Shown in pieces: positions 29,284-63,355 of a DNA stretch of 64,000 nt. The DNA lies in the IMG/VR virus record IMGVR_UViG_3300017963_000189; one strand, given 5' to 3'. A program made the position numbers and the translations under genes. How positions within the stretch are numbered: the stretch's first letter is position 1; every line of letters starts with the position of its first letter. Source of the stretch: a virus. Lineage: Duplodnaviria; Caudoviricetes. The notes below the pieces were generated by a model. That model was not told the origin of the DNA, did not search any database, and saw only the letters and a program-made list of their open reading frames with translations.

Positions 29284-29363
29284 AACTCTCGGTGAGATTC
29301 GAACTCACGTTTTCAGCTCCGGCTACGGCTAACAGGGTCGAAACCTGCCCCGGCTACGAGAGC
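29284..29363 (-). ncRNA. Non-canonical tRNA-like RNA, anticodon UCG (Arg), D-loop motif displaced 3' of anticodon arm
   Basis: Acceptor GCTCTCG/CGAGAGT, T-arm GTGAG-TTCGAAT-CTCAC, hairpin GCAGG-TT TCG AC-CCTGT, no D-arm. Confidence 0.75.
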
Positions 29364-29366
29364 ATT

Positions 29367-29486
29367 TTAATGCCATGCGTTATCAAACCAAATCCTTAAA
29401 GTTAAATACGCAAATGCTAATATACCAATAATGGCTGCTATTAATATACCAACTACCTTAAAAACTATTTTAAATACTTTGGACAT
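29367..29486 (-). CDS. 39-aa membrane peptide (MSKVFKIVFKVVGILIAAIIGILAFAYLTLRIWFDNAWH)
   Basis: Read by hand; GGAG RBS; single hydrophobic helix. Confidence 0.5.
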   Translation of the reverse strand: MSKVFKIVFKVVGILIAAIIGILAFAYLTLRIWFDNAWH

Positions 29487-29507
29487 AATTCACTCCAAGT
29501 TAATAAG

Positions 29508-29587
29508 AACCGTCGGCGAGATTCGAACTCGCATTTTCAGCTCCAATTACGATTAGTTGCTTAGAAGGCAACCTCGGCTACGACGGC
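29508..29587 (-). ncRNA. Non-canonical tRNA-like RNA, anticodon UCU (Arg), same architecture as 29284
   Basis: Acceptor GCCGTCG/CGACGGT, T-arm GCGAG-TTCGAAT-CTCGC, hairpin GTTGC-CT TCT AA-GCAAC. Confidence 0.75.
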
Positions 29588-29782
29588 TTATTTTCGTTTC
29601 AAGTCGGTTACGATTTCCCCACAATCGGGGCAAGTCAACCAATTCCACATTCCACCTTTGGCTAAAGTTTCTTTCAAACTTTTATACCTAAACGATTTTA
29701 CACATTTGTTACAAAAATAGTTGAAACCCTTTTTTGTAACCGTTACTTGTTCATCTAAACCCTTAGATGTATTTCTTGGCAT
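29588..29782 (-). CDS. Zn-ribbon protein
   Basis: CNKC...CPDCG. Confidence 0.6.
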   Translation of the reverse strand: MPRNTSKGLDEQVTVTKKGFNYFCNKCVKSFRYKSLKETLAKGGMWNWLTCPDCGEIVTDLKRK

Positions 29783-30266
29783 ATTCGTGATCCTTTGAAA
29801 AATTACTTACATTACTTTTTAACGCTTTCTTCAAGTCACCAAAATACTTGTCTATCGATTTTAGGATTTGATCAGGTGATCCAGTTTTCTTACGTACAGG
29901 AACTTTTACTCTATCATACGCCATATAAGAATCAGGACCCGGTTTAATAACAAAACTTCCTGCTCCACTTGGATCAAATTGAAGTTTATCTTTCATCTTA
30001 CCACTTTTTTCAAATCCCCAAATAAACATACGATTACTAACTATATCATTTTCAAAATATCCACCAGACCAATCATTCTTTTGACCTAACGCGAATACGA
30101 TATGAATACTCGGTTCAAAACGTCCACCAAATTCAACTTGAGAAAATGACTTTGGAAAATGTTTCTTTATTACACTTTCAATTTGTTTCACAAAATCATC
30201 AGTACTCATTGTTGCTTCGTTGAGTTTACCCTTTTCCAATACTTCTTTCCATTGTTTACTATCCAT
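29763..30266 (-). CDS. Hypothetical protein (N-terminal ...KLNE motif)
   Basis: ORF with RBS and ATATTTATA/TTGACA promoter. Confidence 0.55.
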   Translation of the reverse strand: MDSKQWKEVLEKGKLNEATMSTDDFVKQIESVIKKHFPKSFSQVEFGGRFEPSIHIVFALGQKNDWSGGYFENDIVSNRMFIWGFEKSGKMKDKLQFDPSGAGSFVIKPGPDSYMAYDRVKVPVRKKTGSPDQILKSIDKYFGDLKKALKSNVSNFSKDHEYAKKYI

Positions 30267-30340
30267 CTATATTCTCCATAAATGATTACTTATATAAATA
30301 TACGAAAAATAAAAAGAATTGTCAACTGTTTTCTGATTTT

Positions 30341-30709
30341 TTATGACAACAATTCAATCTCTATACTCAATACTTCATGAATAAATGTACCGATATTTTG
30401 TAAGTCTTTTGCCTTTGTCTCGGGCAAATGTATCTCTTTGTTCCTATCATCTAATGCTTGATCTACAACAAGTCTATACGTGTCCATCTTGGAAAATGGT
30501 AAATGATTTCTTATTTGTGTAGTAAATACAAATAAATCCTCTACCCGTATCTTATCCTTTTGGAATACGTGTTTTACTGGAGTATCAACAGATGGAATAC
30601 CTAATGCGGAAACAATCTTGTCGTTTACCCGATATACAGATACTAAAACTTTTACCTTTTGTGATTTTTTAACCGTTGTTTTAGTTGTCTTTTCTTTCGT
30701 TTCTGCCAT
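30341..30709 (-). CDS. Hypothetical protein
   Basis: ORF with GGAG RBS. Confidence 0.5.
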   Translation of the reverse strand: MAETKEKTTKTTVKKSQKVKVLVSVYRVNDKIVSALGIPSVDTPVKHVFQKDKIRVEDLFVFTTQIRNHLPFSKMDTYRLVVDQALDDRNKEIHLPETKAKDLQNIGTFIHEVLSIEIELLS

Positions 30710-30710
30710 T

Positions 30711-31244
30711 TTATTCTCCTTTTAATTTATTTATCGCCTCTTGAATCAAATCTTCATGAAACCCTTTTTCCATTGTAGTATGTATAAACTTTCCCTTATG
30801 TAAGGGCTCAATATCAGACAATTCATCATCTATAATTATATAAGAATCAACATTTTTATTCTCACTCAACCATAAATTTATCTCATTTCCACGTTCATGT
30901 TCCCAAAACATTTGTAAATCATTTATAGTTTTGATTCCTATATCCTCTTTATACTCTTTCCAAACTGGCGTCCTTCCTATAACAATCCCACGAAAGTCGG
31001 CGTTCATCAAATACATAATCAACTCATTTATTGGATGTAAATCTCGCCATGACGATGATATAACTACAAATGCTTGCGTTTCATCTATAACCTTGTTGAT
31101 GTTTTCTACCAACTTTGGATCAATCATTTTTTGACTATACAAATTACGATCACCATCTTTATTCGCTTTCGCAAATGTACGGGCGTCACTGATAGAATCA
31201 TTGGTACATATTACTCCATCAAAATCTAAAAATATAACTTTCAT
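30711..31244 (-). CDS. HAD-superfamily phosphatase, RNA-repair (Swiss Army Knife-like) type
   Basis: IFLDFDGVI, VISSSWR, ERGNEINLWL, YIIIDD. Confidence 0.8.
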   Translation of the reverse strand: MKVIFLDFDGVICTNDSISDARTFAKANKDGDRNLYSQKMIDPKLVENINKVIDETQAFVVISSSWRDLHPINELIMYLMNADFRGIVIGRTPVWKEYKEDIGIKTINDLQMFWEHERGNEINLWLSENKNVDSYIIIDDELSDIEPLHKGKFIHTTMEKGFHEDLIQEAINKLKGE

Positions 31245-31380
31245 CCTAATAACTCCGGATATTTCATTTCAAAATACTTGAATATCGCCACTATTGTAAA
31301 TGCGATTATTACACCATATCTTTCTATTACAATACCAAATATAATGGCGAATACACAAAATATAATCCATCCAATACATT

Positions 31381-33369
31381 TTATTTTTTGTTTTTTCTTC
31401 TCTTTTTCATCCATGCAAATAACTTGTTTATGTTTGTCGCCTTATCAAATATTTCTTCCTTACCAACTACCACACCATATACGTGTTCCTCAATCGTATC
31501 TTCGCCTATCAAATAATATACGTTCACGGCATTCTTTTGTCCTATTCGATGGGCTCTATCCTCGGCTTGTGTTAGCATCGCCGGTGTCCAGGGTAACTCA
31601 AGAAACGCAACCTTGTCACACACATCTTGTAATCCGTCTATACCAACTCCACCAGATTGAACCGAGGCGACAAATAGTTGTATTCTCTTGTCCTTGATAA
31701 ACTTGTTTACCAAATCCTCAACTTGATCACTCATTCCACCATATAATAATACAGCCCTATCTTTGTATTTCTCATAAACTTGTTCCGCAGCATCCCTGTG
31801 ATGCGTAAACAAAATCAACTTACTCGATTGTTCTAATGTATCATCTATCCACTCTAACGCCGCTTTCATTTTATACTCAACCGCAGCTTGTCGTAAATAT
31901 TCTACCTTTACCATCTTCTCAGCAAACGCACTACGATTTTGTAACTTTTCGTCTACTGCTTCCAAGATTTCATGTTCACTCATTTCATCTTGTTTTCGTA
32001 GTTTCGTCTCATACCAATTTATAGAATCATCCTCAACTTTTTCGTAAGCCGGAACATCAGATAATGGCAAATAAACTACTTGTCTAACTTTATCAGGTAA
32101 CTCAGTTAAAACATCCCTTTTCATACGACGAATCATACAAGATTTTCTCAACTCAACTTGTAGTTCTTCCTCGTTCGCCGAACCATATGTCGTACCAAAC
32201 CCATTCCATTGTGGCGGAGCGTAGCGGTTTATAAATTTCCTCTTTCCACCAAAATGTGTGTCCAAAATTCCTAACAAATCAAGCTGTGGTGCTAATTCAA
32301 CAGTTCGATTTAGTATCGGTGTACCGGTCGTCAAAATCTTGAATGGAACATTCTTGAAATTTTTGAGTATGTAATCCGTTCGAGCAGCTTTTGGATTTTT
32401 CAAATAGTGACTTTCGTCACATACAATGACTTTTGGTTTTCTTACCACAAAACGATTTGATACCTTTGACGCCATTGAATAACTTACAATGTATAAATCA
32501 CCAGGTGGAATGATTTTGTTCTTATCAACCGCAACCACACTTTTATGAGGCAACCACGTCTTTATTTCTCGCGCCCAATTTTTCTTCAGCATCGCTGGTA
32601 CAACAATCAATGCTGGATATAGTTGATGGTACTCTATAATCGCTAACGCTTGTATTGTCTTTCCTAATCCCATTTCGTCAGCGATAAGGATTGACCTTTT
32701 ATGTTTTGAGTATTCCACCGATACTTTTTGGAATGGATATAGTTTCTCAAACATACCCTTGAATTCTTCCGTTTCTTCCATTTCAGCGGTTACGGATAAC
32801 TCAAATAACTTCTTTTGTTTCTCAATCTCTTTCTTTAGTCTCTGTTTCGCCTTTTTTACTTTTTCTTCGTCAATGTCATATCCTATTACTTTAACTAATG
32901 GATGATTTGTTAGTTCATCAAATACATTTTCATCACGAATAATTGAAAACCAAACTCCATCTTGATTTTGGCGAAATTCAAATTGAAAATCTAAATCCTT
33001 CTTAAAAAATCCTATTAATATGTCAAACTTGTCTTTCGGTAACCAGGGTAACCTGACCTCTATTACATTATTATCACCTACTATTTTAATGTTTATTTTA
33101 TCGTATACCGGTCGTTCCTTGTTAACTTCATCATTTTTTGAACTTAATGTTTCATAATCAATTTCATACTTGTCTAATACACTCTTGTTCTTTACTAAAC
33201 ATTCATCTATAAGTTTTACTTTACCATAATCCGTTATCTTTCCTCTCAACAAGTGTTCCAATAATATTCTATCAGCGCCAGAAAATCCCTGTATCTTTCC
33301 TTGTTTAACAAAATCAAGAAATAGTTTAGCGAATTTTACGGTATAATGTTCATTATAGTTGTTACTCAC
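31381..33369 (-). CDS. SNF2-family helicase (SMARCAL1/HARP-like)
   Basis: LYPFQ, ADEMGLGKTIQA, VCDESHYLKN, LTTGTPILNR, GGVGIDGL, QAEDRAHRIGQ. Confidence 0.92.
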   Translation of the reverse strand: MSNNYNEHYTVKFAKLFLDFVKQGKIQGFSGADRILLEHLLRGKITDYGKVKLIDECLVKNKSVLDKYEIDYETLSSKNDEVNKERPVYDKINIKIVGDNNVIEVRLPWLPKDKFDILIGFFKKDLDFQFEFRQNQDGVWFSIIRDENVFDELTNHPLVKVIGYDIDEEKVKKAKQRLKKEIEKQKKLFELSVTAEMEETEEFKGMFEKLYPFQKVSVEYSKHKRSILIADEMGLGKTIQALAIIEYHQLYPALIVVPAMLKKNWAREIKTWLPHKSVVAVDKNKIIPPGDLYIVSYSMASKVSNRFVVRKPKVIVCDESHYLKNPKAARTDYILKNFKNVPFKILTTGTPILNRTVELAPQLDLLGILDTHFGGKRKFINRYAPPQWNGFGTTYGSANEEELQVELRKSCMIRRMKRDVLTELPDKVRQVVYLPLSDVPAYEKVEDDSINWYETKLRKQDEMSEHEILEAVDEKLQNRSAFAEKMVKVEYLRQAAVEYKMKAALEWIDDTLEQSSKLILFTHHRDAAEQVYEKYKDRAVLLYGGMSDQVEDLVNKFIKDKRIQLFVASVQSGGVGIDGLQDVCDKVAFLELPWTPAMLTQAEDRAHRIGQKNAVNVYYLIGEDTIEEHVYGVVVGKEEIFDKATNINKLFAWMKKRRKNKK

Positions 33370-33743
33370 ATACTCTCTCCGATTTGGATTACTCTACCAT
33401 AAACGTTCTTTGTCCAACCGTTTATCCGTCCATGATTATTTCCAATCAATAGTCCACGTTTATCATTTTTTCCTTTTACTAAATGTGTATAAAGATTTCC
33501 CTTGACCTTACAATAAACTATGTCGCCTACATTACATTCTTCCCACGTCACCGGTTCCAGTGTAACCGGTTGACGAGATTTGATTAACGGCATCATAGAG
33601 TTGCCAGGTTCTTTGGAAATTATTGTCTCTCCATTCAATAACTTTTCAACTTTCCAATTCAAATACTTTCTCCAAAATGGGCTCAAATCGTCTAAAGATA
33701 CGCCAACGGGCTTCCTCTTTGTCGATAAATCCTGCCCAATCAA
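33366..33743 (-). CDS. S24/S26 peptidase-like protein (true start probably internal)
   Basis: GNSMMPLI...VGDIVYCKV...THLVK. Confidence 0.6.
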   Translation of the reverse strand: MIGQDLSTKRKPVGVSLDDLSPFWRKYLNWKVEKLLNGETIISKEPGNSMMPLIKSRQPVTLEPVTWEECNVGDIVYCKVKGNLYTHLVKGKNDKRGLLIGNNHGRINGWTKNVYGRVIQIGESM

Positions 33744-34089
33744 TCTCTCTTATTTGTAGTAAATCCTTTGGTATTGTTGGATAAATGTGTTTTATAAAAT
33801 GTTTGTCCTTTATCCTAACAACAAACCAAAATACTTTCTTGTATGTCTTACCTTGTTTATTCTTATAGTTTATTACTTTTGGTTCACCACTTTCTACCAT
33901 GTCGGGCGAAAACTCAACCCCGAATTCCTCTCTCGTTTCTCTTATCGCTGCGTCTAACTCACTCTCTCCAATCTCTATCTTTCCCTTTGGAATGCTGTAT
34001 GAGCCTTTCCACGGTGCTCCGGTGGGATGTCCTAATAAAATACTATCTTCGTAGATAATAACTAAACCGGCCGATTTCTCTATTCCCAT
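33646..34089 (-). CDS. Nudix hydrolase
   Basis: PKGKIEIGESELDAAIRETREEFG Nudix box. Confidence 0.9.
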   Translation of the reverse strand: MGIEKSAGLVIIYEDSILLGHPTGAPWKGSYSIPKGKIEIGESELDAAIRETREEFGVEFSPDMVESGEPKVINYKNKQGKTYKKVFWFVVRIKDKHFIKHIYPTIPKDLLQIREIDWAGFIDKEEARWRIFRRFEPILEKVFELES

Positions 34090-34116
34090 TTCTCACCTAT
34101 ATATAAATATATAACT

Positions 34117-34497: not shown

Positions 34498-35268
34498 TTA
34501 ATCTCCTATATTTCTACTTGTTATCCATTTTTCAATTATATATCTTTTATCCTTTACAAAATATGGTATTCTTGTATCGGCGACCCAGCGTGACCTTTCC
34601 ACCATTCCATCACCAACTACCACATCGTAACTTTCTTTATATACGACAAATCCCCACTTTTGTAAAGGTGTAAGATTATCCCACAAAATACCCTTTTTAT
34701 AACACATATCAACCATTTCTTGTTGATTCTTTCCATTACATTCACTGTGACTATATAATGAACGAGCAAGAGCTTGAATGGAATTTCTCTTGGCATCTTG
34801 TTGTCTCCAAATGAAAACATTTTCTATTTCGCCGACAGTTGGCACATTGAAAACTCGGGCATCAAATAATGCTGATGTCCATTGATCAAAATGACCCACT
34901 CCCTTTAGATTGAAATGTGCGGTGAACGCGGAAGCCATAATGGATGTGATCTTTTGTATCTTTCCACCAAAATACATTTGTGAATCAGGATTCGCCCATC
35001 CATTCAATAAAAATGTGACTTCATCAGATTGCCCGTAAGCCATAAGTATTTGTCCTACATCACGACATAAATCAATAGTCGCTTGTTGAAACAATAATGA
35101 CAAACGATAATCAAATGGTTTCTCGATGTTCATTCGTTTTACCCATGTGTGAAACGCCTTACCATCAAGGCGAACAAACGTAGGCATATTTTGATTTACA
35201 TATCCTAACTCCGGAGAATAAAATTCCTTCTCATACATTTTCATCCGGTCGCCTAATGAATCACTCAT
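34498..35268 (-). CDS. tRNA(His) guanylyltransferase Thg1-like protein (3'-5' polymerase)
   Basis: GDRMKMYE, VRLDGKAFH, AYGQSDEVTF, FDARVF, WRQQDAKRNSI. Confidence 0.92.
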   Translation of the reverse strand: MSDSLGDRMKMYEKEFYSPELGYVNQNMPTFVRLDGKAFHTWVKRMNIEKPFDYRLSLLFQQATIDLCRDVGQILMAYGQSDEVTFLLNGWANPDSQMYFGGKIQKITSIMASAFTAHFNLKGVGHFDQWTSALFDARVFNVPTVGEIENVFIWRQQDAKRNSIQALARSLYSHSECNGKNQQEMVDMCYKKGILWDNLTPLQKWGFVVYKESYDVVVGDGMVERSRWVADTRIPYFVKDKRYIIEKWITSRNIGD

Positions 35269-35567
35269 AATTCCTCCGTCCATTGACAATGTTCATACGC
35301 ATCGTTTGAGCCTTCTTCATACTTTAGTTGCATAACTTCATCTATTTCATCTAAAAGTTCTTTGCTCAATTTTATACCAAATTCCACACAAGATTCTAAC
35401 TTAGCCATCAATACATTGTAACGATAATTTACTTCAGATAAAGTAACGTGTTGTATAAACTTTCCATCAATCCATAACTCCGCATCATAATATGGATATG
35501 AACCATCAATCTTTTTTACGTTACGATATTCTTTATCACGATACTTTTTTCCCATCTTTCTTTCCAT
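35265..35567 (-). CDS. Hypothetical protein
   Basis: ORF track. Confidence 0.45.
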   Translation of the reverse strand: MERKMGKKYRDKEYRNVKKIDGSYPYYDAELWIDGKFIQHVTLSEVNYRYNVLMAKLESCVEFGIKLSKELLDEIDEVMQLKYEEGSNDAYEHCQWTEEL

Positions 35568-40726: not shown

Positions 40727-42370
40727 TTAGAATTTATCCATAATAAAGTCACTCATTATAGATGGCGCGTTTGTGTCGAAACCAACAACGTCGAGTGAGC
40801 TTCTATCCTTTGGATCAGCAATAGTGAAACCATTCGATGCCATACCAACTACAACTAACTTGACATCGTGACCCACTTTATGACGATAACGATCCATTGC
40901 TTCGCTTGGTTGGATATTTCCTGCCCAAGTTTCATTATCGGTATATACAAAAATCGCGTCAAAATCCTTGTTCATACCAGCGGCCCACAATGCTGGTAAA
41001 GCACAATCAGTTCCACCAAAATCTAACCTGCTAACGTAATTATCCACATCATTCAAACTCATTCTATCGTGTAACTTCAATTCCGTTACATTAGTTAACG
41101 CTTGACCAGAACCATACCAACCACCACCGGTAAATCCAATAATACCCCAGTTCTTTTCAGCTTTCATCGTTACCATAGCCATTGCGGACGATGCGGAACG
41201 ACAACTGATAAATGGAGCGTTTTGAATACCACTACCCATAGAACCAGATACATCCAAAGCAATCAAGATTCTCTTACCCGTAGACTCAATGTTCTTGAAT
41301 GCTTTGTAAAATCCTGCGTCCAAAGCGGAAACGATTTGTGGTACAACGTTCCAAGTATTAGACCCACGAAAACCACGTCCTGCTTCATAGGTTTTCAAAG
41401 CCATTAATAATTGAATAGGATGTACACGTGCTTTCTTTAACGCTTCATCATTAGTGATCTTGTCAACCACTAAGTTGATTTCGTCAAAGTTACCACTTTC
41501 CAAGATACCAACTTTGGATAAGTTACCTAAATTACGAATTAACGCAGTCATAGGCATTGTTGGTAACAACGCTTCGTATACTTTCTTTCCTAAGAATTGT
41601 GTAGGAATAGCTTCCCGTGGCAAGTTATATTCCTTAATCAAGTTCACAATTTCCTTTTCATTTTCGGCTTTCTTTGCTAACTCAAAACCATAAATCATTG
41701 GAATTTTCCTATACTTCTCAATGTCGCCATTGATTCCTTGAGTAATCCAATGGAATACCTTGTTCATATCTTCATTGACGGCTTGTGCATGAGACTTACG
41801 TAAAATGTCACGGTGACTCCACCCGTCACGAGATTGATACTTGACTACTTGATACGCCAACTTGTTGATGTCCTTGTCGGTGTACCACTTGGCGAATGCC
41901 TTACGTAATCCACGACCCCAACCACGCATCGAGTTTACGAACTCTGTGAAATGGAATAAATGAGTACCAATACGTGCTACTTTACTCAAGTTGTCCAAAG
42001 CGTACTTCTTAGCTTCGTCAGTTCCATAGGAAGCAACCATCGCTAATACGAATAACGCTGGATCATTATTAGGTGCACGACCCTCTAAAGAAATCTCAAC
42101 TACACGATTTACAACTTCAATGCCATCTTCCTTGATTAACTTTTCAATGTTCTTAGCATTCTTCTTAGTTAACTTTTGCGCGGATGCGTAATAAGTTGGT
42201 TGATCGCTACCCAATACTAAGAAACGATTTAACTTATCCCACTTGTCCAACTTAAATGAGACGCCACCGCCATAATTCTTAGCCATATCTTTCTTACGAC
42301 CCTTGATTTTTTGGTTTTGTGGAGTTGCTACCTTAGTAGACTTGTTTAAAGTTTTGGTATAATTTTGCAT
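40727..42370 (-). CDS. rsr: Ro60/TROVE-domain RNA-binding protein (start MQNYTK)
   Basis: LNRFLVLGS...YY, KYQSRDGWSHRDILR, MTALIRNLG, ARVHPIQLL, vWA MIDAS LDVSGSM, GGTDCALP, VYTDNETWAG. Confidence 0.95.
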   Translation of the reverse strand: MQNYTKTLNKSTKVATPQNQKIKGRKKDMAKNYGGGVSFKLDKWDKLNRFLVLGSDQPTYYASAQKLTKKNAKNIEKLIKEDGIEVVNRVVEISLEGRAPNNDPALFVLAMVASYGTDEAKKYALDNLSKVARIGTHLFHFTEFVNSMRGWGRGLRKAFAKWYTDKDINKLAYQVVKYQSRDGWSHRDILRKSHAQAVNEDMNKVFHWITQGINGDIEKYRKIPMIYGFELAKKAENEKEIVNLIKEYNLPREAIPTQFLGKKVYEALLPTMPMTALIRNLGNLSKVGILESGNFDEINLVVDKITNDEALKKARVHPIQLLMALKTYEAGRGFRGSNTWNVVPQIVSALDAGFYKAFKNIESTGKRILIALDVSGSMGSGIQNAPFISCRSASSAMAMVTMKAEKNWGIIGFTGGGWYGSGQALTNVTELKLHDRMSLNDVDNYVSRLDFGGTDCALPALWAAGMNKDFDAIFVYTDNETWAGNIQPSEAMDRYRHKVGHDVKLVVVGMASNGFTIADPKDRSSLDVVGFDTNAPSIMSDFIMDKF

Positions 42371-42410
42371 GATTCGACCCTCCTGTTTAAAGGTAAATGT
42401 TATATAAACT

Positions 42411-42437
42411 AAAAAACCCGACAAGATATTTGTCGGG
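42411..42437 (-). terminator. Terminator/attenuator hairpin in Ro60 leader
   Basis: CCCGACAA-ATATC-TTGTCGGG plus T6, about 40 nt before the start codon. Confidence 0.7.
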
Positions 42438-51632: not shown

Positions 51633-52241
51633 TCAACCATAAAATTTTGATTCACCATATAGTAATTTTACCTCTTTCATGATAAAAGCATACATACGAG
51701 CAACATTATACGCATCGTCCATTCCACGATGGGGCGAGCCTTCAAACTCTAAACCAAGTACCTGAAGCGCGTTGTCCACGTTTCGTTGTACGTTTTGATT
51801 CGTCAAAAGTGAAAACCAATACTTGAAATTACTATGAGTATGTTTGAACGGATATTGTAATCCCTTTCTCTCACATTCTCTTTCTACTTGTTGTCTATCA
51901 AAATCTCCCCAGGACATCCATTCATATTTCGTTGTCTTGAACTCAGTCATCATCCTCGCCAGGGCATAGTCAAGGGCAAGACCATCCTTGATTATCATTT
52001 GTTGAGTGATACCTGTGAGTTTAGTGCAGTAATCTGTTATACCACTTAGACCCATCTCTGTAGGAATTATGAGATAACTTTCTTTCTTTTCGATCTCCAA
52101 TGATCTCGTATCAAGTTGTACTATTCCTATCTCAATCATTTCCATTACGTCACGTTGATTTCGTCCATCAGGAAGTATACCATTTTCCCAACAAGTGCTT
52201 TCCAAATCTACGAAATTTATTTTTTGTACCTTTTTCGCCAT
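51633..52241 (-). CDS. DEDDh 3'-5' exonuclease (KapD/ERI-1-like)
   Basis: FVDLESTCW, IIEIG, SWGDFDRQQ, HRGMDDAYN. Confidence 0.9.
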   Translation of the reverse strand: MAKKVQKINFVDLESTCWENGILPDGRNQRDVMEMIEIGIVQLDTRSLEIEKKESYLIIPTEMGLSGITDYCTKLTGITQQMIIKDGLALDYALARMMTEFKTTKYEWMSWGDFDRQQVERECERKGLQYPFKHTHSNFKYWFSLLTNQNVQRNVDNALQVLGLEFEGSPHRGMDDAYNVARMYAFIMKEVKLLYGESKFYG

Positions 52242-57276: not shown

Positions 57277-57355
57277 TGGGAGCAGTCGGGATCGAACCGA
57301 CGACACCCCGGGCTTCAACCGAGTGCTCTACCATTCTAATCTGAGCTACACTCCC
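57277..57355 (-). tRNA. tRNA-Phe(GAA), enlarged D-loop
   Basis: Cloverleaf; TT GAA GC. Confidence 0.9.
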
Positions 57356-57485: not shown

Positions 57486-57605
57486 TTGCGCGAGTAGGAT
57501 TCGAACCTACATCCTTCCTTTCCAATAAGATAACGTTTCTCCAGCGGCCCTGTTAGGACAAAAACGAAGCAACGGTTTTAGATGTTACCATTACACCATC
57601 GCGCA
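57486..57605 (-). ncRNA. tRNA-Gln-derived RNA with anticodon arm replaced by ~65-nt domain
   Basis: TGCGCGA/TCGCGCA acceptor; D-arm TGGTGTAATGGTAACATC identical to tRNA-Gln at 63109; perfect T-arm. Confidence 0.7.
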
Positions 57606-58206: not shown

Positions 58207-58289
58207 TGGTAAGGGTAGGATTTGAACCTACGAACCCTTGCGAGACCGGTTTTACAGACCGGCGCCTTTAACCACTCGGCCACCCTACC
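58207..58289 (-). tRNA. tRNA-Tyr(GUA)
   Basis: Cloverleaf with long variable arm. Confidence 0.95.
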
Positions 58290-58320
58290 AAATCTTATTC
58301 TAAACCAATACTATATCTCA

Positions 58321-58473
58321 TTAGTAATCAACTTTCCCGCGACAAGCTTTACGGGATTGTTCACGTTTTTTGTTTTTGATTTTACGAACACGGTAACGTC
58401 CATCAAAGAAACCATCACGTTTCTGGATTTCTCTCAAAACACCTTTGTTCATATTTATGTTTACATTACTCAT
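58321..58473 (-). CDS. Small basic hypothetical protein (GFFDGRYR)
   Basis: 3' part of track ORF 58321..58515. Confidence 0.5.
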   Translation of the reverse strand: MSNVNINMNKGVLREIQKRDGFFDGRYRVRKIKNKKREQSRKACRGKVDY

Positions 58474-58718
58474 TAGACCATCACTACTTTCTTTTGTTTC
58501 AACCAAGTTAGACAATCATCTAACTCTTGTTCATCTATTTCGCCATTCAATAACTGACACTGCCAGTTCAACATATTTGAGATAACTTCTTTCCTTACAA
58601 ACTTCCCTTTTGGGAAATCATCTAAGGCTAATCCTAACAAAGGCGTAGTATCTACACCAGGATAAGTCTTTCCATTTCTCAAATCGTCAACTACTTCTTT
58701 TACGTCAGCTTTTGTCAT
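58473..58718 (-). CDS. Hypothetical protein
   Basis: ORF behind TTGACA promoter. Confidence 0.55.
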   Translation of the reverse strand: MTKADVKEVVDDLRNGKTYPGVDTTPLLGLALDDFPKGKFVRKEVISNMLNWQCQLLNGEIDEQELDDCLTWLKQKKVVMV

Positions 58719-58797
58719 TTCTCAAATCCTCTCTAAATGTTATACCTAAATATACAACATTTTTTTGGATTTGTCAACTGTTTTCTGGTTTTTTTTG

Positions 58798-58871
58798 TAC
58801 CGCGAGTTGGATTTGAACCAACGACTTCCTGCTTGTAAGGCAGACACTCTAAACCCCTGAGTTACCGCGGC
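58798..58871 (-). tRNA. tRNA-Val(UAC)
   Basis: Cloverleaf. Confidence 0.95.
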
Positions 58872-58885
58872 ATATAATGTTCCTT

Positions 58886-59021
58886 TGGTACGAGAGGCAA
58901 GACTTCATCCTTGCGCTTATGTATTGTAACCTATATGATCAACCTATAAGCCATACATCGTATGGAAGCGAATCAAACATACAGCGCTGACTTTGTTTGA
59001 CTTTTTCTCTACCTCTCTCGC
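58886..59021 (-). ncRNA. tRNA-like RNA (acceptor + T-like arm + encoded ACCA) with multi-hairpin core
   Basis: GCGAGAG/CTCTCGT-ACCA; GCAAG-GATGAAGT-CTTGC; hairpins TCAAACA/TGTTTGA, CCATAC/GTATGG, GCTTAT/ATAAGC. Confidence 0.6.
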
Positions 59022-59036
59022 CAGAGAAACATTGTG

Positions 59037-59110
59037 CTCCACCGGTAGGATTCGAACCTACGACAAGTCGGTTAACAGCCGACCGCTCTACCTGACTGAG
59101 CTACAGTGGA
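59037..59110 (-). tRNA. tRNA-Asn(GUU)
   Basis: Cloverleaf. Confidence 0.95.
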
Positions 59111-59113
59111 ATT

Positions 59114-59188
59114 TGGCTGGCCCGCCTGGACTTGAACCAGGAATGCTTGAGTCAAAGTCAAGTGTGTTGCCAATTACACCACGAGCCA
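59114..59188 (-). tRNA. tRNA-Gln(UUG), CCA encoded
   Basis: Cloverleaf. Confidence 0.95.
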
Positions 59189-59196
59189 ATTTCTTG

Positions 59197-59269
59197 TGGA
59201 GGCCCTGAGAATCGAACTCAGCTCTTCACGGGCTTCAACCGAACGCTTCACCAGGATAGCTTGACCTCC
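59197..59269 (-). tRNA. tRNA-Phe(GAA)
   Basis: Cloverleaf. Confidence 0.88.
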
Positions 59270-59278
59270 AAAAAAAAT

Positions 59279-59389
59279 GGGTAAGTGTCGAATAAGATAA
59301 ATCTCCCAAAGGGAGTTGTGGGGCTTGATCCCACGGCGATCCAGATTCGTAAATCCGACCGCCAACCAGGTAACCTTATCCATCGACCC
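59279..59389 (-). ncRNA. Y-RNA-like element Y4 with tRNA-like domain
   Basis: GGGTCGATGGATAAG-GTTACC...T-arm GTGGG-ATCAAGC-CCCAC, CTCCC/GGGAG hairpin...CTTATTCGACACTTACCC. Confidence 0.7.
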
Positions 59390-59395
59390 ACTTAG

Positions 59396-59588
59396 TTCTC
59401 AGAGTTGGAATCGAACCAACTTCCGTACAAGGTTTATTGTAGTTACTTACTATTCACACATTGTTTATTTTTCAGGCCTCAATGTGTGGGCTTCACTACA
59501 ATCTCACTTGATTCTACTTAGATTCGGCTGATCGCGATCAGCAGGAACGATCTAAGTCAACGTGTCTTACCGCATAAACGATCCAAGA
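59396..59588 (-). ncRNA. tRNA-like RNA with ~130-nt domain replacing anticodon arm
   Basis: TCTTGGA/TCTGAGA acceptor, GTTT/AGAC D-stem, GTTGG-TTCGATT-CCAAC; insert stems ACTTAGAT/ATCTAAGT, GCTGATC/GATCAGC, ATTGTAGT/ACTACAAT, CACACATTG/CAATGTGTG. Confidence 0.7.
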
Positions 59589-59589
59589 G

Positions 59590-59664
59590 CGGAACCGACG
59601 GGACTTGAACCCGCAAGCCTTCGCCTTGACAGGGCGATGTGCTAACCAATTACACCACGGCTCC
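59590..59664 (-). tRNA. tRNA-Asp(GUC)
   Basis: Cloverleaf. Confidence 0.95.
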
Positions 59665-59703
59665 AAATAAGAACAGTTTCACATCTTGTTCAGGATGTAA
59701 AAA

Positions 59704-60123
59704 TTACTGCAACAACGTCAGGTTCAGGAATGGGAAATGTCTTTTCAACTCAACTTCGTGTTTCAATAATACCTTAGCTTCCGGTTCCGCTTTCAATAAG
59801 ACATCTAAAGAATCGTAGTAAGTAACATCGTTGACTTCCGCTTCCCAGCCGTAGCAAGAACAGTGTCCGTCATACAATACTGCCCATCTACCATCTTTAG
59901 TTATTCCTATTTCAGTAGCGCCTTCTTCGTAATCATCCAAGTAAAACCCATCATACATTATCAACCACACTACTTCAACACCTTTCAACGCAAATTGTAA
60001 ACGATCAATGTTATCAACTCCAGATTCAATAGCATATTCCCCGTAGAATCCGTTGTCATAACTTTCCTGCAACGCTTTTTGTTGATAGTTGTACGCTTTT
60101 CTCCAAGTTTGTAAAGTTTTCAT
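59704..60123 (-). CDS. Hypothetical protein
   Basis: ORF with GGAG RBS; HCSCYG motif. Confidence 0.6.
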   Translation of the reverse strand: MKTLQTWRKAYNYQQKALQESYDNGFYGEYAIESGVDNIDRLQFALKGVEVVWLIMYDGFYLDDYEEGATEIGITKDGRWAVLYDGHCSCYGWEAEVNDVTYYDSLDVLLKAEPEAKVLLKHEVELKRHFPFLNLTLLQ

Positions 60124-60238
60124 GGCAATTCTCCTTATGTTAGTTTATGGTTTCTAAGTAGTTAAGAATTGCTTAACTTTACCATACCTATCATTTGGAT
60201 TGTCGCCTAAAAAATTTACTTCTCAAAGATCAAACTTG

Positions 60239-60311
60239 TGCCCCCACTTGGATTCGAACCAAGAACTCACCGCTTAAAAGGCGGGTGCGTTACCATTGAC
60301 GCCATGGAGGC
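60239..60311 (-). tRNA. tRNA-Lys(UUU)
   Basis: Cloverleaf. Confidence 0.93.
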
Positions 60312-60313
60312 AA

Positions 60314-60553
60314 TTACATACTATTTTTTATCGCACTTACTATTTGGTAAAAATTCATTATCGTCCAATTCTTGTATACCATCACTTCACCATCAGAATA
60401 ATGAACTACCATTTTTATTTTTCCATAAAATTTACATATTTTGTCGCCGTTCTCGTTGATAAATGTGACCTTGTTATTCTCTACAATAAAATCACACTCA
60501 ACTTCAATGGCGACCCACTTGTAAAAATCGTAAAAAACTCTATCATTGTCCAT
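60314..60553 (-). CDS. Hypothetical protein
   Basis: ORF behind TTGACA promoter. Confidence 0.5.
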   Translation of the reverse strand: MDNDRVFYDFYKWVAIEVECDFIVENNKVTFINENGDKICKFYGKIKMVVHYSDGEVMVYKNWTIMNFYQIVSAIKNSM

Positions 60554-60627
60554 CGTTTATTCCTTTAACGTATATATAAATATACGAAAAAAATGTAAAC
60601 TTGTCAACTGTTTTTTCAGATTTTTTG

Positions 60628-60699
60628 TAGGCCTGCAAGGTAACGATCCTTGTTCTCCCGCTTAAAAGGCGGGTGCTTCACCATTAAAGCTTCAGACCC
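60628..60699 (-). tRNA. tRNA-Lys(UUU), variant T-loop
   Basis: Cloverleaf; T-loop ATCGTTA. Confidence 0.85.
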
Positions 60700-60707
60700 A
60701 TAATTTG

Positions 60708-60780
60708 TGGAGCTACTCGGATTCGAACCGAGAACTCAGGCTTGCAAGGCGAGCGTAGTTCCCATTACTACCATAGCCCC
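60708..60780 (-). tRNA. tRNA-Ala(UGC), mismatched anticodon stem
   Basis: Cloverleaf; G3:U70. Confidence 0.85.
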
Positions 60781-60790
60781 ATATCATTTG

Positions 60791-60863
60791 TGGAGACGAT
60801 CGGAATCGAACCGACCACAGTCTGCTTGCAAGGCAGTCTCGCCCCCTTGGCACATGCGCCCCC
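60791..60863 (-). tRNA. tRNA-Ala(UGC)
   Basis: Cloverleaf; G3:U70. Confidence 0.85.
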
Positions 60864-60915
60864 ATAAAAGACAATCGTTTTAGGTTATCTCAACTCAAAC
60901 AACCTTTTTTACTTG

Positions 60916-60986
60916 TCCGCACAGAGAGAATCGAACTCCCATTTACTGGATATAAGCCAGGTGCTCTACCGTTGAACTATGCGCGG
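60916..60986 (-). tRNA. tRNA-Ile(UAU)
   Basis: CCTGG-CT TAT AT-CCAGT; A73. Confidence 0.85.
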
Positions 60987-61070
60987 ATAAATGAACAAGT
61001 ATTGTATTGGAAAGCGGGCATTAGCCCAACTCCATCATGAAAGGATAACCCAATACTTTCGGCTCATTAG

Positions 61071-61141
61071 CAAGGGCGACAGGAATCGAACCCGCCACAC
61101 CAGGATTTGGAGTCCCGGTCGTCACCTTGACATACGCCCCT
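61071..61141 (-). tRNA. tRNA-Trp(CCA)
   Basis: Cloverleaf. Confidence 0.92.
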
Positions 61142-61149
61142 ATAATTTG

Positions 61150-61232
61150 TACCGACACTCGGATTCGAACCGAGACGGGATTTCTCCCACTCGCTTTTGA
61201 AACGAGCGTGTCTACCATTCCACCATATCGGC
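61150..61232 (-). tRNA. tRNA-Leu(CAA)
   Basis: Cloverleaf with long variable arm. Confidence 0.95.
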
Positions 61233-61237
61233 ATAAT

Positions 61238-61337
61238 GTCAAGGATTTTCACTACACAAAAGTTGACATATCTATGTAGTAAAGGCGTTTTACGTTTGTC
61301 GGTCTAAGTCAACCTCGACCTTTCCCACGACCTTGAC
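61238..61337 (-). ncRNA. Unidentified structured intergenic RNA
   Basis: GTCAAGG/CCTTGAC closing stem, TTTACTACA/TGTAGTGAA hairpin, GTTGAC complementary to loop GTCAAC. Confidence 0.45.
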
Positions 61338-61346
61338 GTACCTTAG

Positions 61347-61429
61347 TAGCACTGGAGAGATTCGAACTCTCATGTATGTTTCAACCGCCGGGTTTAAGCC
61401 GACTGCGTATGCCATTCCGCCACAGTGCC
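61347..61429 (-). tRNA. tRNA-Leu(UAA)
   Basis: Cloverleaf with variable arm. Confidence 0.93.
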
Positions 61430-61439
61430 ATATATTTTG

Positions 61440-61512
61440 TAGCACCACCCGGATTCGAACCGAGATCTGTGGGGCGAAAACCCACTATCCTAAACCATTA
61501 GACGATGATGCC
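61440..61512 (-). tRNA. tRNA-Glu(UUC)
   Basis: Cloverleaf. Confidence 0.9.
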
Positions 61513-61519
61513 ATATAAT

Positions 61520-61599
61520 GAGCAAATAGTTGTCAAGGAATAACCCCGAAGGGCTATTGGATTCGAACCAATTTAACCGATAACCTTAACATTCGGCTC
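61520..61599 (-). ncRNA. YrlA-like Y RNA Y5
   Basis: GAGCCGAATG (GNCGAAN0-1G)-TTAAGG-TTATC, T-arm ATTGG-TTCGAAT-CCAAT, closed hairpin AGCCC-TTCG-GGGTT, CCTTGACA...GCTC. Confidence 0.8.
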
Positions 61600-61604
61600 A
61601 TTTG

Positions 61605-61679
61605 TCGGGATAGACGGATTCGAACCGCCGATCCCATGCTCCCAAAGCATGTGCGTTAGCCAGACTACGCTATATCCCG
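61605..61679 (-). tRNA. tRNA-Pro(UGG)
   Basis: Cloverleaf. Confidence 0.95.
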
Positions 61680-61686
61680 ATAAAAG

Positions 61687-61758
61687 TCTGAGCGGCTGGG
61701 CTCGAACCAGCGCGTTCCCGGTTCCAAGCCGGGGTTCTTCCAACTGAACTACGCCCAG
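61687..61758 (-). tRNA. tRNA-Pro(UGG)
   Basis: Cloverleaf. Confidence 0.92.
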
Positions 61759-61764
61759 ATAATA

Positions 61765-61836
61765 AAACGAACAAGAGTGACCAACGAGTTTTGTTCTTTT
61801 TGACAGGAAAGATAATCGTCAATCTTCGGCTCGTTT
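61765..61836 (-). ncRNA. Y-RNA-like element Y6 (minimal)
   Basis: AAACGAGC-CGAAG-ATTGACG-ATTATC...CGTTGGT-CACTCTT-GTTCGTTT. Confidence 0.75.
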
Positions 61837-61838
61837 AG

Positions 61839-61911
61839 AGTACCATATCGGATTCGAACCGATACCACCGACTTGGAAGGACGGAATGCTACCGTTAAAC
61901 ACCAATGGTAC
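61839..61911 (-). tRNA. tRNA-Gly(UCC)
   Basis: Cloverleaf, U73. Confidence 0.92.
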
Positions 61912-61918
61912 ATAAAAG

Positions 61919-61990
61919 TTGCGGGAGTGAGAATTGAACTCACGTGGCTCGGCTTATGAAACCGAGTGGGCGACCAACAGCCTTCCCACA
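61919..61990 (-). tRNA. tRNA-Met(CAU), minimal D-arm
   Basis: CTCGGT-TT CAT AA-GCCGAG; GTGAG-TTCAATT-CTCAC. Confidence 0.75.
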
Positions 61991-61996
61991 ATAAAA

Positions 61997-62157
61997 GTGC
62001 TCCGTTAAGGATTCGAACCTCGTTTAGTTATACCATGCTACACCTTGGCCCAGGACTTTGGTATAACCTACTCTTTCATCTTAGTGAACTGACTTGAATC
62101 AGTGTAGTAACTCAAGACTTCATTCTAAAACTATTAGACCATCTTCTAACCGGAACA
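61997..62157 (-). ncRNA. tRNA-like RNA with ~100-nt insert containing putative kissing loops
   Basis: TGTTCCG/CGGAGCA acceptor, TAGA/TCTA D-stem, T-loop TTCGAAT; hairpins CTTGA/TCAAG and GTTATACCA/TGGTATAAC with loops CTACAC and GTGTAG. Confidence 0.7.
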
Positions 62158-62165
62158 TATAAGGC

Positions 62166-62305
62166 TGCCTGAGGCCGGAATCGAACCGGCTTGAAAACCC
62201 ATTTCGTACTTTGTGGTTTTCTTTAGCGACCCCAGCGATTCTGTCTCAGTTAGTACGAACCAAAACATATTCTTTTCTGGGCGCCCCACTCCAGTGGGCT
62301 CGGGC
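62166..62305 (-). ncRNA. tRNA-like RNA with ~80-nt insert in anticodon loop
   Basis: GCCCGAG/CTCAGGC, CCCAC-TGGA-GTGGG, anticodon stem GCCCA/TGGGT, inner TTCGTACT/AGTACGAA, T-arm GCCGG-TTCGATT-CCGGC. Confidence 0.7.
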
Positions 62306-62311
62306 GTTTAG

Positions 62312-62393
62312 TACCTTCGGAGAGATTCGAACTCTCATGTCCTTTGGACGCTGGTTTCTAAAACCAGTGTGTATGCCGTTCCACCACGAAGGC
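62312..62393 (-). tRNA. tRNA-Leu(UAG)
   Basis: Cloverleaf with variable arm. Confidence 0.95.
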
Positions 62394-62399
62394 AAATAG

Positions 62400-62473
62400 T
62401 GCGGGAAGTAGGTTTTGTATCCTACAACTTCGGGCTTACTCACCCGATGTTTTTTCTCTTAAACTATTCCCAC
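62400..62473 (-). pseudogene. Degenerate tRNA (8-nt anticodon loop TGAGTAAG, T-loop ATACAAAA)
   Basis: All four stems pair but loops lack consensus. Confidence 0.6.
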
Positions 62474-62476
62474 TTG

Positions 62477-62551
62477 TGATGTCGACGGGATTCGAACCCG
62501 CATTTACCAGATTGAAAGTCTGGTGTCCTACTCCATTTAGACGACGACATC
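62477..62551 (-). tRNA. tRNA-Glu(UUC)
   Basis: Cloverleaf. Confidence 0.93.
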
Positions 62552-62557
62552 AATTTG

Positions 62558-62629
62558 AGCTACCTACAGGAATCGAACCCGTAACTTGGGCTTACAAAAC
62601 CCTTGTTTTCCCAGTTAAACTAAGGCAGC
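62558..62629 (-). tRNA. tRNA-Thr(UGU)
   Basis: Cloverleaf. Confidence 0.9.
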
Positions 62630-62638
62630 ATTCATTTG

Positions 62639-62711
62639 AGCTCCCGATCGGCATCGAACCGATACCACCAACTTACCAAGCTGGTATTCTATCCAATTAA
62701 ACTACAGGAGC
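62639..62711 (-). tRNA. tRNA-Thr(GGU)
   Basis: Cloverleaf. Confidence 0.92.
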
Positions 62712-62718
62712 AACTCAG

Positions 62719-62792
62719 GGTGATCGTCGGGATTCGAACCCGAACCAGCCGAGTCACAATCGACTATGCTCACCATTTACACCACGATCACC
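62719..62792 (-). tRNA. tRNA-His(GUG), G-1 genomically encoded, C73
   Basis: G-GTGATCG.../CGATCAC-C; TT GTG AC. Confidence 0.95.
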
Positions 62793-62799
62793 ATATAAG

Positions 62800-62873
62800 C
62801 GAGACCGAAGGGATTCGAACCCTCAGCTACCGGATAGACAGTCCGGTGTGTTGACCAATTACACCACGGCCCC
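62800..62873 (-). tRNA. tRNA-Asp(GUC)
   Basis: Cloverleaf. Confidence 0.95.
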
Positions 62874-62937
62874 AAATGAACCAAACTCCATTATCATCCG
62901 CACGGTTAGTCGGCTTGATCAATTTCATTTGGTTTAG

Positions 62938-63009
62938 CTTCTCCAATAGGATTCGAACCTATATCTCCGCCCCGATTGGGCAGTGTCCTTTCCTTTAGAC
63001 GATAGAGAA
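62938..63009 (-). tRNA. Glu/Asp-type tRNA body with aberrant loop CA ATC GG (anticodon AUC, A33)
   Basis: Intact stems and T-loop; U33 lost. Confidence 0.6.
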
Positions 63010-63108
63010 AACGAAACAAAGTGATCAACTTTATATTTCGCCGTGGATAGGAAAGTGATCAGCTCTCCAGCCCCACTATACCATTGGCATATAAAACCAA
63101 TGATGTTG

Positions 63109-63179
63109 CTGACCCACATGGATTCGAACCATGAACTTCTGATTCAAAGTCAGAGATGTTACCATTACACCATGAGCCA
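63109..63179 (-). tRNA. tRNA-Gln(UUG)
   Basis: Cloverleaf. Confidence 0.95.
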
Positions 63180-63184
63180 ATATA

Positions 63185-63277
63185 AAAAGAATCTCGATAT
63201 GTTGTGTTAAGTTCCTCATAGGGCAGACGTAACTCCTAAACAACATATCAGCCGTTCTGCTACTCATTGATTCTTTT
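63185..63277 (-). ncRNA. Long hairpin RNA with asymmetric bulge
   Basis: AAAAGAATC/GATTCTTTT and GATATGTTGT/ACAACATATC stems. Confidence 0.45.
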
Positions 63278-63278
63278 G

Positions 63279-63355
63279 TCCGCGCGGTTGGAATCGAACC
63301 AACGTGTAACCTACTACTCTTTCTACGCCTTATCAGAGCGAGGAGATACGCGCGG
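63279..63355 (-). ncRNA. Non-canonical tRNA-like RNA, anticodon GAU (Ile), displaced D-loop class
   Basis: CCGCGCG/CGCGCGG, CGCT-CT GAT AA-GGCG, TAGTAGG after anticodon arm, GTTGG-TTCGATT-CCAAC. Confidence 0.75.

Follow-up and report, generated by a model that had tools for sequence, protein, structure and literature searches.

According to a 2024 paper, all known bacterial tRNAs are cloverleaves, and an engineered tRNA of noncanonical fold that was evolved for Escherichia coli is a laboratory construct (PMC11551756). Among mitochondrial (mt) tRNAs, metazoan mt-tRNA-Ser(AGY) and Ascaris mt-tRNA-Ser(UCU) are D-armless: they have a short flexible connector, have lost the elbow between G18G19 and the T loop, and need adapted mitochondrial factors (PMC7609411). 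Allo-tRNAs, which came from metagenome mining, are noncanonical tRNAs of bacteria and phages in which the acceptor/T branch is 8/4 or 9/3 (PMC5389517). We analyzed a 64,000-nucleotide (nt) stretch of viral DNA (termed the window), corresponding to bases 1430 to 65429 of the 161.6-kilobase (kb) IMG/VR record IMGVR_UViG_3300017963_000189, which is estimated to be 70% complete. The window contains three minus-strand genes, tRNA-Arg(UCG), tRNA-Arg(UCU), and tRNA-Ile(GAU) (R1, R2, and R3), in which the acceptor stem of 7 base pairs (bp), the T arm, and the anticodon arm are normal and the D hairpin is absent. In all three, the anticodon arm is flanked by one or two short helices and is followed by a D-loop-like UAnnnGG. 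We estimate at about 80% the probability that these rewired genes, together with a fourth (Arg-CCU) in the same record, encode elongator tRNAs that are functional and whose core, a three-way junction, preserves the D-loop/T-loop elbow.

From 5′ to 3′, R1 consists of the acceptor strand, U, AGC, CGG, G, the anticodon arm, UAG, CCG, UAGCCGGA, GCU, GAAAAC, the T arm, and the second acceptor strand (Table 1). R1 and R2 are colinear and have in common the UAnnnGGA motif, a GAAAAY linker, and an anticodon loop with U33 and A37. R3 carries a U.U at the top of its anticodon stem (27:43; conserved in the subtype) and a U.G at the loop end, and it lies within a tRNA array, 11 nt downstream of the canonical tRNA-Arg(ACG). 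The Arg-CCU gene is found about 25.5 kb past the end of the window, wedged between two open reading frames (ORFs). A first-pass annotation of the window, made from the sequence alone, had placed RNAs with acceptor, T, and anticodon arms and without a D hairpin at these positions, and both sequence and coordinates agree with it. Its description of a relocated TAnnnGG after the anticodon arm is accurate in every detail checked in the three genes, the flanking complementarities that it listed (CGG/CCG, CGA/TCG, and CTC/GAG, with AGC/GCT outside in the Arg copies) are present, and the R1 acceptor is, as it said, identical to that of tRNA-Arg(ACG) on direct comparison.

Relatives of these genes are numerous. 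Following a blastn match, we identified in Pseudomonas phage HHBS10_2 an unannotated homolog that has a CCC/GGG inner helix and encodes CCA, and related copies occur in IME180, vB_PaeM_Ty, PA11, TC6, PSA11, FBPa8, PP21, and Boevelstad, none of which carries a tRNA annotation for them. Scanning IMG/VR with exact patterns, the Ile(GAU) one being built to exclude canonical tRNAs, yielded at least 56 loci with the Arg-like layout and at least 33 with the Ile(GAU) pattern; the exactness of the patterns makes both figures minimum estimates. All patterns fixed the UA, the GG, and the T loop, and those for the Arg type also fixed the A after the GG, the GAAAA linker, and a Y at column 55. After removal of duplicates, 43 distinct 79-nt Arg-type genes (UCU, UCG, ACG, and CCU) and 14 distinct 76-nt Ile-type genes remained; further Ile variants of 77 to 81 nt exist.

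The alignments of these genes showed that the flanking pairings are real helices. In the Arg alignment, the proposed structure was 96.5% paired, compared to 64% after shuffling and at most 45% when the 3′ partners were slid by 1 to 3 columns. For the outer helix, position 10:48 was GC in 28 genes, AU in 13, CG in 1, and UA in 1, with none unpaired, and position 11:47 was CG in 33, UA in 4, AU in 2, UG in 1, and U.U in 3. For the inner helix, 12:38 was an invariant C:G, and 13:37 was GC in 31 genes, AU in 8, CG in 2, UA in 1, and GU in 1, again with none unpaired. All four Watson-Crick pairs are sampled at 10:48 and at 13:37. Positions 11:39 and 12:38 of the Ile alignment were paired in every gene, with four and three pair types, respectively. 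The acceptor, anticodon, and T stems covary across the relatives too, and a mutual-information scan of all column pairs, with no structure supplied, ranked the flanking pairs among those of the classical stems. Since the compensatory changes occur in both the Arg and the Ile alignments and RNAalifold recovers the flanking helices unaided, the comparative data support and strengthen the alternative topology that had been proposed from three copies, with a D-loop-like motif past the anticodon arm.

We then looked into the relocated motif itself. The third base of UAnnnGG (position R15) is complementary to the Y48 equivalent, the base that immediately precedes the T stem on its 5′ side, in 43/43 Arg-type and 14/14 Ile-type genes. 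The Arg pair (41:55) is AU in 39 genes and GC in 4 (44 A:T and 6 G:C, with no exception, over 50 matches), and the Ile pair (42:52) is GC in 7, AU in 6, and UA in 1; in the window, it is G:C in R1, A:U in R2, and G:C in R3. No relative varies at U8, the A14 equivalent, or the GG, several of these bases being fixed by the search patterns. In canonical tRNAs, covariation of R15 with Y48 marks the Levitt pair, and in this respect the relocated UAnnnGG acts as a D loop does.

The Rfam tRNA model (RF00005) gave 33.1 bits for R1, 36.9 for R2, and 29.7 for R3, the last barely exceeding the gathering threshold of 29. In these alignments, 4 to 5 nt stand in place of the 15-nt D arm and 18 to 20 nt are inserted in the variable region. 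The 7-bp acceptor, the 5-bp T stem with its 7-nt loop, the 5-bp anticodon stem with its 7-nt loop, U33, and a purine at position 37 are all present, and what R1 to R3 lack of the four-arm cloverleaf is the D hairpin between positions 9 and 26. The rewired class is thus tRNA by score and by every feature but the D hairpin. ARAGORN called only R1, misread as a "tRNA-???" with a 4-base anticodon. A family model built from Arg-type relatives scored R2 at 99.5 bits, R1 at 86 bits, and R3 at 31.2 bits, the low score of R3 being due to the Arg-type origin of the model. Taken with flanking helices that covary over dozens of independent phage contigs, these family-model scores put the design of R1 to R3 far beyond chance.

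The class is common in phage DNA and is missed by standard tRNA finders. The Arg-layout pattern had only seven matches in 185,579 prokaryotic species (one genome each), and since all seven were on metagenome-assembled contigs, we regard the class as essentially phage borne. The isotypes seen are Arg (four anticodons), Ile (GAU and UAU), and one tentative Trp-CCA. The Trp assignment comes from a single 78-nt example on a 416-kb viral contig (L095; G002:87300-87377; 55 bits to the family model), with a CCA anticodon, an AGU/ACU inner helix, and a Levitt-like A:U pair; the same contig carries an Ile-UAU variant (L097; G002:81265-81344; 47.6 bits). Arg, Ile, and Trp are all charged by class I synthetases, and a link between that class and the rewired isotypes is speculation. 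Two further viral contigs (L062 and L064) contain an odd GAU tRNA-like gene with a short 5′ connector and a GAACC/GGUUC variable-region hairpin; this design is different, and we did not count it as rewired. Full-text literature searches, whose coverage stopped short of subscription-only papers, found neither a catalogued family nor a published description of the class, and the 43 Arg-type and 14 Ile-type relatives supply the additional covarying homologs on which the first-pass annotation had made its proposal depend.

The base that follows the GG goes with the isotype. When this base was left free in the scan, three extra loci appeared, all with T (U) at this position and an Ile anticodon. 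The 47 distinct matches with A there have the Arg layout: 44 were parsed directly as UCU, ACG, UCG, or CCU, and three are indel variants that the script misparsed, two of which could be read by eye (L007 as UCG and L033 as UCU), the third being L041. A20 is the main determinant for arginyl-tRNA synthetase (ArgRS) in E. coli. Among the Ile-type genes, A73 is found in 13/13, as are A37 and A38, but the latter two were fixed by the search pattern. The anticodon loops of the Arg-type genes, CUACGAA for ACG and CUUCUAA for UCU, are the same as those of the corresponding E. coli tRNAs-Arg. CCA directly follows the discriminator in 24 of the 43 Arg-type genes, for which chance (1/64 per gene) would give about 0.7.

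The anticodons also complement those of the canonical tRNAs in this genome. ARAGORN found about 44 canonical tRNAs covering all 20 amino acids, with Arg represented by ACG alone and Ile by UAU alone (plus three CAU), and the four rewired genes supply exactly the anticodons UCG, UCU, CCU, and Ile-GAU that are absent from this set. Of the Arg codons, AGA is used most (17.2 per 1000), and AUU and AUC together reach 42 per 1000. In the complete 50-kb record of phage HHBS10_2 (44.7% GC; AGA plus AGG at 19 per 1000 codons), the rewired Arg-UCU gene is the sole tRNA-family match. AGA and AGG are rare in the GC-rich Pseudomonas host, and we view HHBS10_2 as a classical case of codon compensation. The 161.6-kb record gave no Pfam match for ArgRS (PF00750), isoleucyl-tRNA synthetase (IleRS; PF00133), or the CCA-adding enzyme (PF01743), which does not show their absence, since the record is only about 70% complete. 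With no phage ArgRS or IleRS found, host enzymes would have to charge the rewired tRNAs.

We propose the following architecture, in which expression, processing, charging, ribosome use, and the three-dimensional fold are inferred. In canonical tRNAs, the strand 22-25/26/27-31 descends the D/anticodon stack without a break, and the D loop exits where the ascending strand reaches its top. In the rewired tRNAs, the strand after U8 would run straight down into the anticodon stem and take the "down" role; the returning strand, in the "up" role, would pair with it to form a D-stem-like helix and would then emit the D-loop residues, which are U-A14-R15-n-n-G18-G19 and, in the Arg type, a further A, so that the D loop would still exit from the top of the up strand. 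A short purine-rich linker would join this loop to the T stem. The core would thereby be a three-way rather than a four-way junction, with connectors 8-9 and 44-48 freed from running along the D stem, and on geometric grounds it could superimpose on the canonical L. The relocated loop would supply the U8-A14, R15-Y48, and G18G19/T-loop contacts that build the elbow, and three extra pairs of the Arg type (9-11 with 47-49) may clamp it. Because the acceptor/T limb is canonical (7 plus 5 bp, with the usual T loop), these RNAs should be normal substrates for RNase P and the CCA-adding enzyme and normal ligands of EF-Tu. Host ArgRS would charge them via the A20 equivalent and C35, and host IleRS via GAU, A37, A38, and A73, for the reading of AGA/AGG, CGA/CGG, and AUU/AUC, codons that this AT-rich phage uses heavily.

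Several observations weigh against this proposal. Position 14:36 is paired in only 24/43 Arg-type genes and unpaired in 19, and the 3 genes with U.U at 11:47 also depart from it. The single-sequence minimum-energy fold is the proposed one for R2, but those of R1 and R3 differ; single-sequence folding is a weak result, outweighed by the comparative data. The elbow is deduced from one covarying tertiary pair plus invariant bases, several of which were fixed by the patterns. The A20 that ArgRS normally reads lies in a true D loop, and the geometry here differs. Finally, two complete jumbo-phage genomes (G001 and G005) carry canonical and rewired Arg-UCU genes together, and in G001 a rewired Ile-GAU gene directly follows a canonical Ile-GAU gene. 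Strict mutual exclusivity of rewired and canonical isoacceptors, to which this genome, G003, and HHBS10_2 conform, was therefore abandoned; such coexistence means that gap-filling is not general, and it leaves room for a specialized, nonredundant role.

That coexistence is also an argument for an alternative that we consider unlikely, namely, that the RNAs are tRNA mimics or decoys, made but not translating, which sequester or misdirect a factor that binds tRNA (a host anticodon nuclease, another defense tRNase, a synthetase, or a modification enzyme) or act as regulators or primers. In the two jumbo phages, they adjoin canonical isoacceptors with the same anticodon and are not merely gap-fillers. 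The fold is noncanonical, and the HAD_SAK_2, Thg1-like, Ro60, RNase T-like, and tmRNA genes of the window would fit a tRNA-centered conflict. However, a decoy has no need for a 7/5 acceptor/T limb, for anticodons tied to identity elements, for CCA in 24/43 genes, or for anticodons that exactly complement the canonical set of this genome, nor would a phage that is rich in AGA/AGG and infects a GC-rich host be expected to carry one as its sole tRNA gene. A functional tRNA is favored over a mimic by the identity elements, the CCA encoded in the genes, the gap-filling, and the codon usage.

A second alternative, in our view quite improbable, keeps the tRNA and denies the flanking pairs: a D-armless tRNA whose approximately 20 extra nt fold as a long variable arm (CCG-UAGC-CGG in R1) in class II or organellar style. 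The Rfam alignment handles this region as a variable-region insert, the pairing 36-38:43-45 can be drawn in 84.5% of cells, and the minimum-energy fold of R1 uses a variant of it. That pairing arises because the invariant GG meets C or U, and two-sided changes number 0 in the 43 sequences. The hairpin cannot form in R3 (GAG-UAGU-AGG), and the flanking helices with which it competes have many compensatory changes and are the ones that RNAalifold picks. We rejected the variable-arm model for its lack of covariation.

The two remaining alternatives have very little in their favor. Decay into pseudogenes, or into fragments left by recombination or mobile-element insertion, would account for the low standard-model scores (29.7 to 36.9 bits) and for the homing endonuclease genes that are often neighbors; it is effectively refuted by the covariation, the fixed length (79 or 76 nt), the stems that are perfect or compensated over dozens of unrelated contigs, and the recurrence of the design with four Arg and two Ile anticodons, while the diversity of the acceptor stems excludes a single recent clone. 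It is equally hard to credit that the RNAs are Y-RNA-like ligands (of the tRNA-mimicking YrlA type) of the phage Ro60 protein, a reading prompted by the Ro60 (TROVE plus vWA) gene of the window and by the tRNA-like module that bacterial Y RNAs contain: the TROVE match is absent in 4/5 other carrier genomes, including the complete 50-kb Pseudomonas phage, and the RNAs have open acceptor ends (an ordinary acceptor stem), anticodon arms, often CCA, and no Ro-binding stem. Ro60 was rejected as a partner on this distribution.

As to why phages would keep functional tRNAs of this design, we suggest tentatively, and with more doubt than conviction, that bacterial translation accepts a natural three-way-junction tRNA and that phages retain it to escape recognition of the canonical D arm and core, as a conflict-proof spare for Arg/Ile decoding. 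One candidate driver, at the RNA level, would be escape from host tRNA-cleaving defense nucleases, for which we count the RNA-repair and RNA-surveillance genes of the window. The other, at the DNA level, would be immunity to homing endonucleases whose targets are canonical tRNA genes, for which we count the homing endonuclease neighbors. In TC6, a homing endonuclease coding sequence (L115, 772-1224) abuts the rewired gene, and when 1046 neighboring ORFs from 86 loci were clustered, the commonest family was a GIY-YIG/NUMOD homing endonuclease, at 12 loci (e.g., L063:1409-2290), a count that was not compared with ordinary tRNA arrays and does not establish enrichment. None of the eight ORFs scanned around R1 and R2 contains an HNH or GIY-YIG domain, and no universal neighbor or shared protein partner emerged among the clustered ORFs.

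The source of the window is a marine jumbo-phage fragment. Its GC content is 34.6%, the minus strand holds almost all long ORFs, as well as a large tRNA array, and a tmRNA gene is present. The DNA sequencing runs that match the window are marine sediment and seawater metagenomes, and searches of sequencing runs with the window listed no RNA run. Rewired genes sit within tRNA arrays, on the coding strand and with normal spacing. The order R2, small ORF, R1 suggests, from context only, a single transcript. The window is rich in RNA-repair and RNA-surveillance (quality-control) genes, and other genes include those for an AAA_28 protein, a transporter, a TonB-dependent-receptor-like protein, and an IMPDH/GMP reductase.

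Table 1. Coordinates of the rewired tRNA genes, their parts, and other features (window positions unless another record is given)
Feature	Position(s)	Strand	Details
R1, tRNA-Arg(UCG)	29285-29363	-	79 nt; discriminator U at 29284; CCA not encoded
R1 acceptor	29357-29363 / 29285-29291	-	GCTCTCG/CGAGAGT; G1.U72
R1 outer helix	29353-29355 / 29315-29317	-	AGC with GCU
R1 inner helix	29350-29352 / 29326-29328	-	CGG with CCG
R1 anticodon arm	29332-29348	-	5-bp stem; loop UUUCGAC; anticodon 29339-29341
R1 D-loop-like	29318-29325	-	UAGCCGGA
R1 linker	29309-29314	-	GAAAAC
R1 T arm	29292-29308	-	GTGAG-TTCGAAT-CTCAC
R2, tRNA-Arg(UCU)	29509-29587	-	79 nt; discriminator U at 29508; layout as R1
R2 outer helix	29577-29579 / 29539-29541	-	AGC with GCU
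R2 inner helix	29574-29576 / 29550-29552	-	CGA with UCG
R2 anticodon	29563-29565	-	
R2 D-loop-like	29542-29549	-	UAAUUGGA
R2 linker	29533-29538	-	GAAAAU
R2 T arm	29516-29532	-	
R3, tRNA-Ile(GAU)	63280-63355	-	76 nt; discriminator A at 63279
R3 flanking helix	63343-63345 / 63317-63319	-	CUC with GAG; single, no outer helix
R3 anticodon arm	63325-63341	-	loop CUGAUAA; anticodon 63332-63334
R3 D-loop-like	63310-63316	-	UAGUAGG
R3 linker	63304-63309	-	UUACAC (6 nt)
R3 T arm	63287-63303	-	
Fourth rewired gene, Arg-CCU	G000:C1:90948-91026	-	79 nt; 85.2 bits to family model
Canonical cloverleaf tRNA-Arg(ACG)	63367-63439	-	comparator; genome's only canonical Arg tRNA
Hydrophobic ORF	29367-29486	-	39 codons; GGAG ribosome-binding site; between R2 and R1, same strand
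HAD_SAK_2	30711-31244	-	"Swiss Army Knife" RNA repair
Thg1-like	34498-35289	-	3′-5′ nucleotidyltransferase type
Ro60	40727-42424	-	TROVE plus vWA
RNase T-like	51633-52241	-	exonuclease
tmRNA	18153-18484	-	
AAA_28 protein	23888-24883	-	
PnuC-type transporter	26173-26772	-	nicotinamide mononucleotide
TonB-dependent-receptor-like	26769-28742	-	Plug plus beta-barrel
IMPDH/GMP reductase	19267-20433		
tRNA-model match, 120 nt	57486-57605	-	41.9 bits
tRNA-model match, GAA (Phe-like)	57277-57355	-	47.1 bits; loop UUGAAGC
tRNA, CUA anticodon	52933-53004	-	amber suppressor type

The tRNA-model matches of the window include other unusual genes. In the 120-nt match, the acceptor, D, and T arms are normal, and about 65 nt stand in place of the 17-nt anticodon arm; given the Ro60 gene in the same window, this insert is possibly Y-RNA-like or intron-like. 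The Phe-like match, which ARAGORN did not call, has an enlarged D loop. The window also encodes a tRNA of the amber suppressor type, and TAG is the stop of 19 of its 174 crude long ORFs, so that wholesale recoding is not evident. A G1.U72 wobble tops the acceptor stem in 9 of the 35 tRNA-model matches, including R1, R2, and the canonical Arg-ACG; we dropped it as an Arg-specific trait and regard it as a house style of the phage.

Beyond confirming the first-pass annotation, the main additions of this analysis are the four gap-filling isoacceptors, the Levitt-equivalent covariation, the association of both the A20 equivalent and A73 with the isotype, and the one-tRNA Pseudomonas phage. If charged and used, the rewired tRNAs would be a widespread natural exception to the four-arm cloverleaf, held by textbooks and recent papers to be universal for bacterial tRNAs. 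They would imply that the tRNA core can be rethreaded with the L shape retained, and they would provide a natural test of the tolerance of ArgRS, IleRS, EF-Tu, modification enzymes, and the ribosome, as well as an orthogonal-looking scaffold for genetic-code engineering. These genes escape both ARAGORN and deposited annotations, which leaves phage tRNA repertoires and analyses of codon usage biased for AGA/AGG and AUY. In the cultured Pseudomonas phages PA11, TC6, IME180, and HHBS10_2, the only tRNA gene is a rewired copy, which makes direct tests possible.

Compared to known systems, the rewired genes form a phage-specific structural class. With canonical bacterial and phage tRNA-Arg and tRNA-Ile (RF00005), they have in common the 7-bp acceptor, the 5-bp T stem with a UUCGAAU or UUCGAUU loop, the 5-bp anticodon stem with a 7-nt loop (U33 and A37), U8, A14-R15...G18G19, an R15:Y48-type covariation, isotype-appropriate anticodon loops, and a location in tRNA arrays. 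They differ in that the D-stem-like helix is closed by the anticodon arm and not by the D loop, the D-loop sequence comes after the arm, and both the position-26 hinge and the 44-48 connector along the D stem are missing. They are not class II tRNAs, because they have no variable hairpin, and a permuted tRNA gene is ruled out by acceptor strands that lie at both gene ends, with CCA after the 3′ strand in many relatives.

With the mt D-armless tRNAs, the common feature is the lack of a D hairpin between the acceptor and anticodon stems. The rewired genes nevertheless keep a D-loop sequence, a canonical T loop, and a D-stem-like helix, and their setting is bacterial translation; because the elbow elements are retained, they are not armless tRNAs of the mitochondrial type. 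Allo-tRNAs are, like them, natural and phage-associated departures from the cloverleaf, but those shift the acceptor/T split and keep the D arm, whereas here the D/anticodon limb is changed and the acceptor/T branch is the standard 7/5, so that the rewired genes are not allo-tRNAs. As for the engineered tRNA (PMC11551756), both it and the rewired class bear on the use by bacterial translation of a tRNA without the canonical core, and the rewired class would be the natural counterexample.

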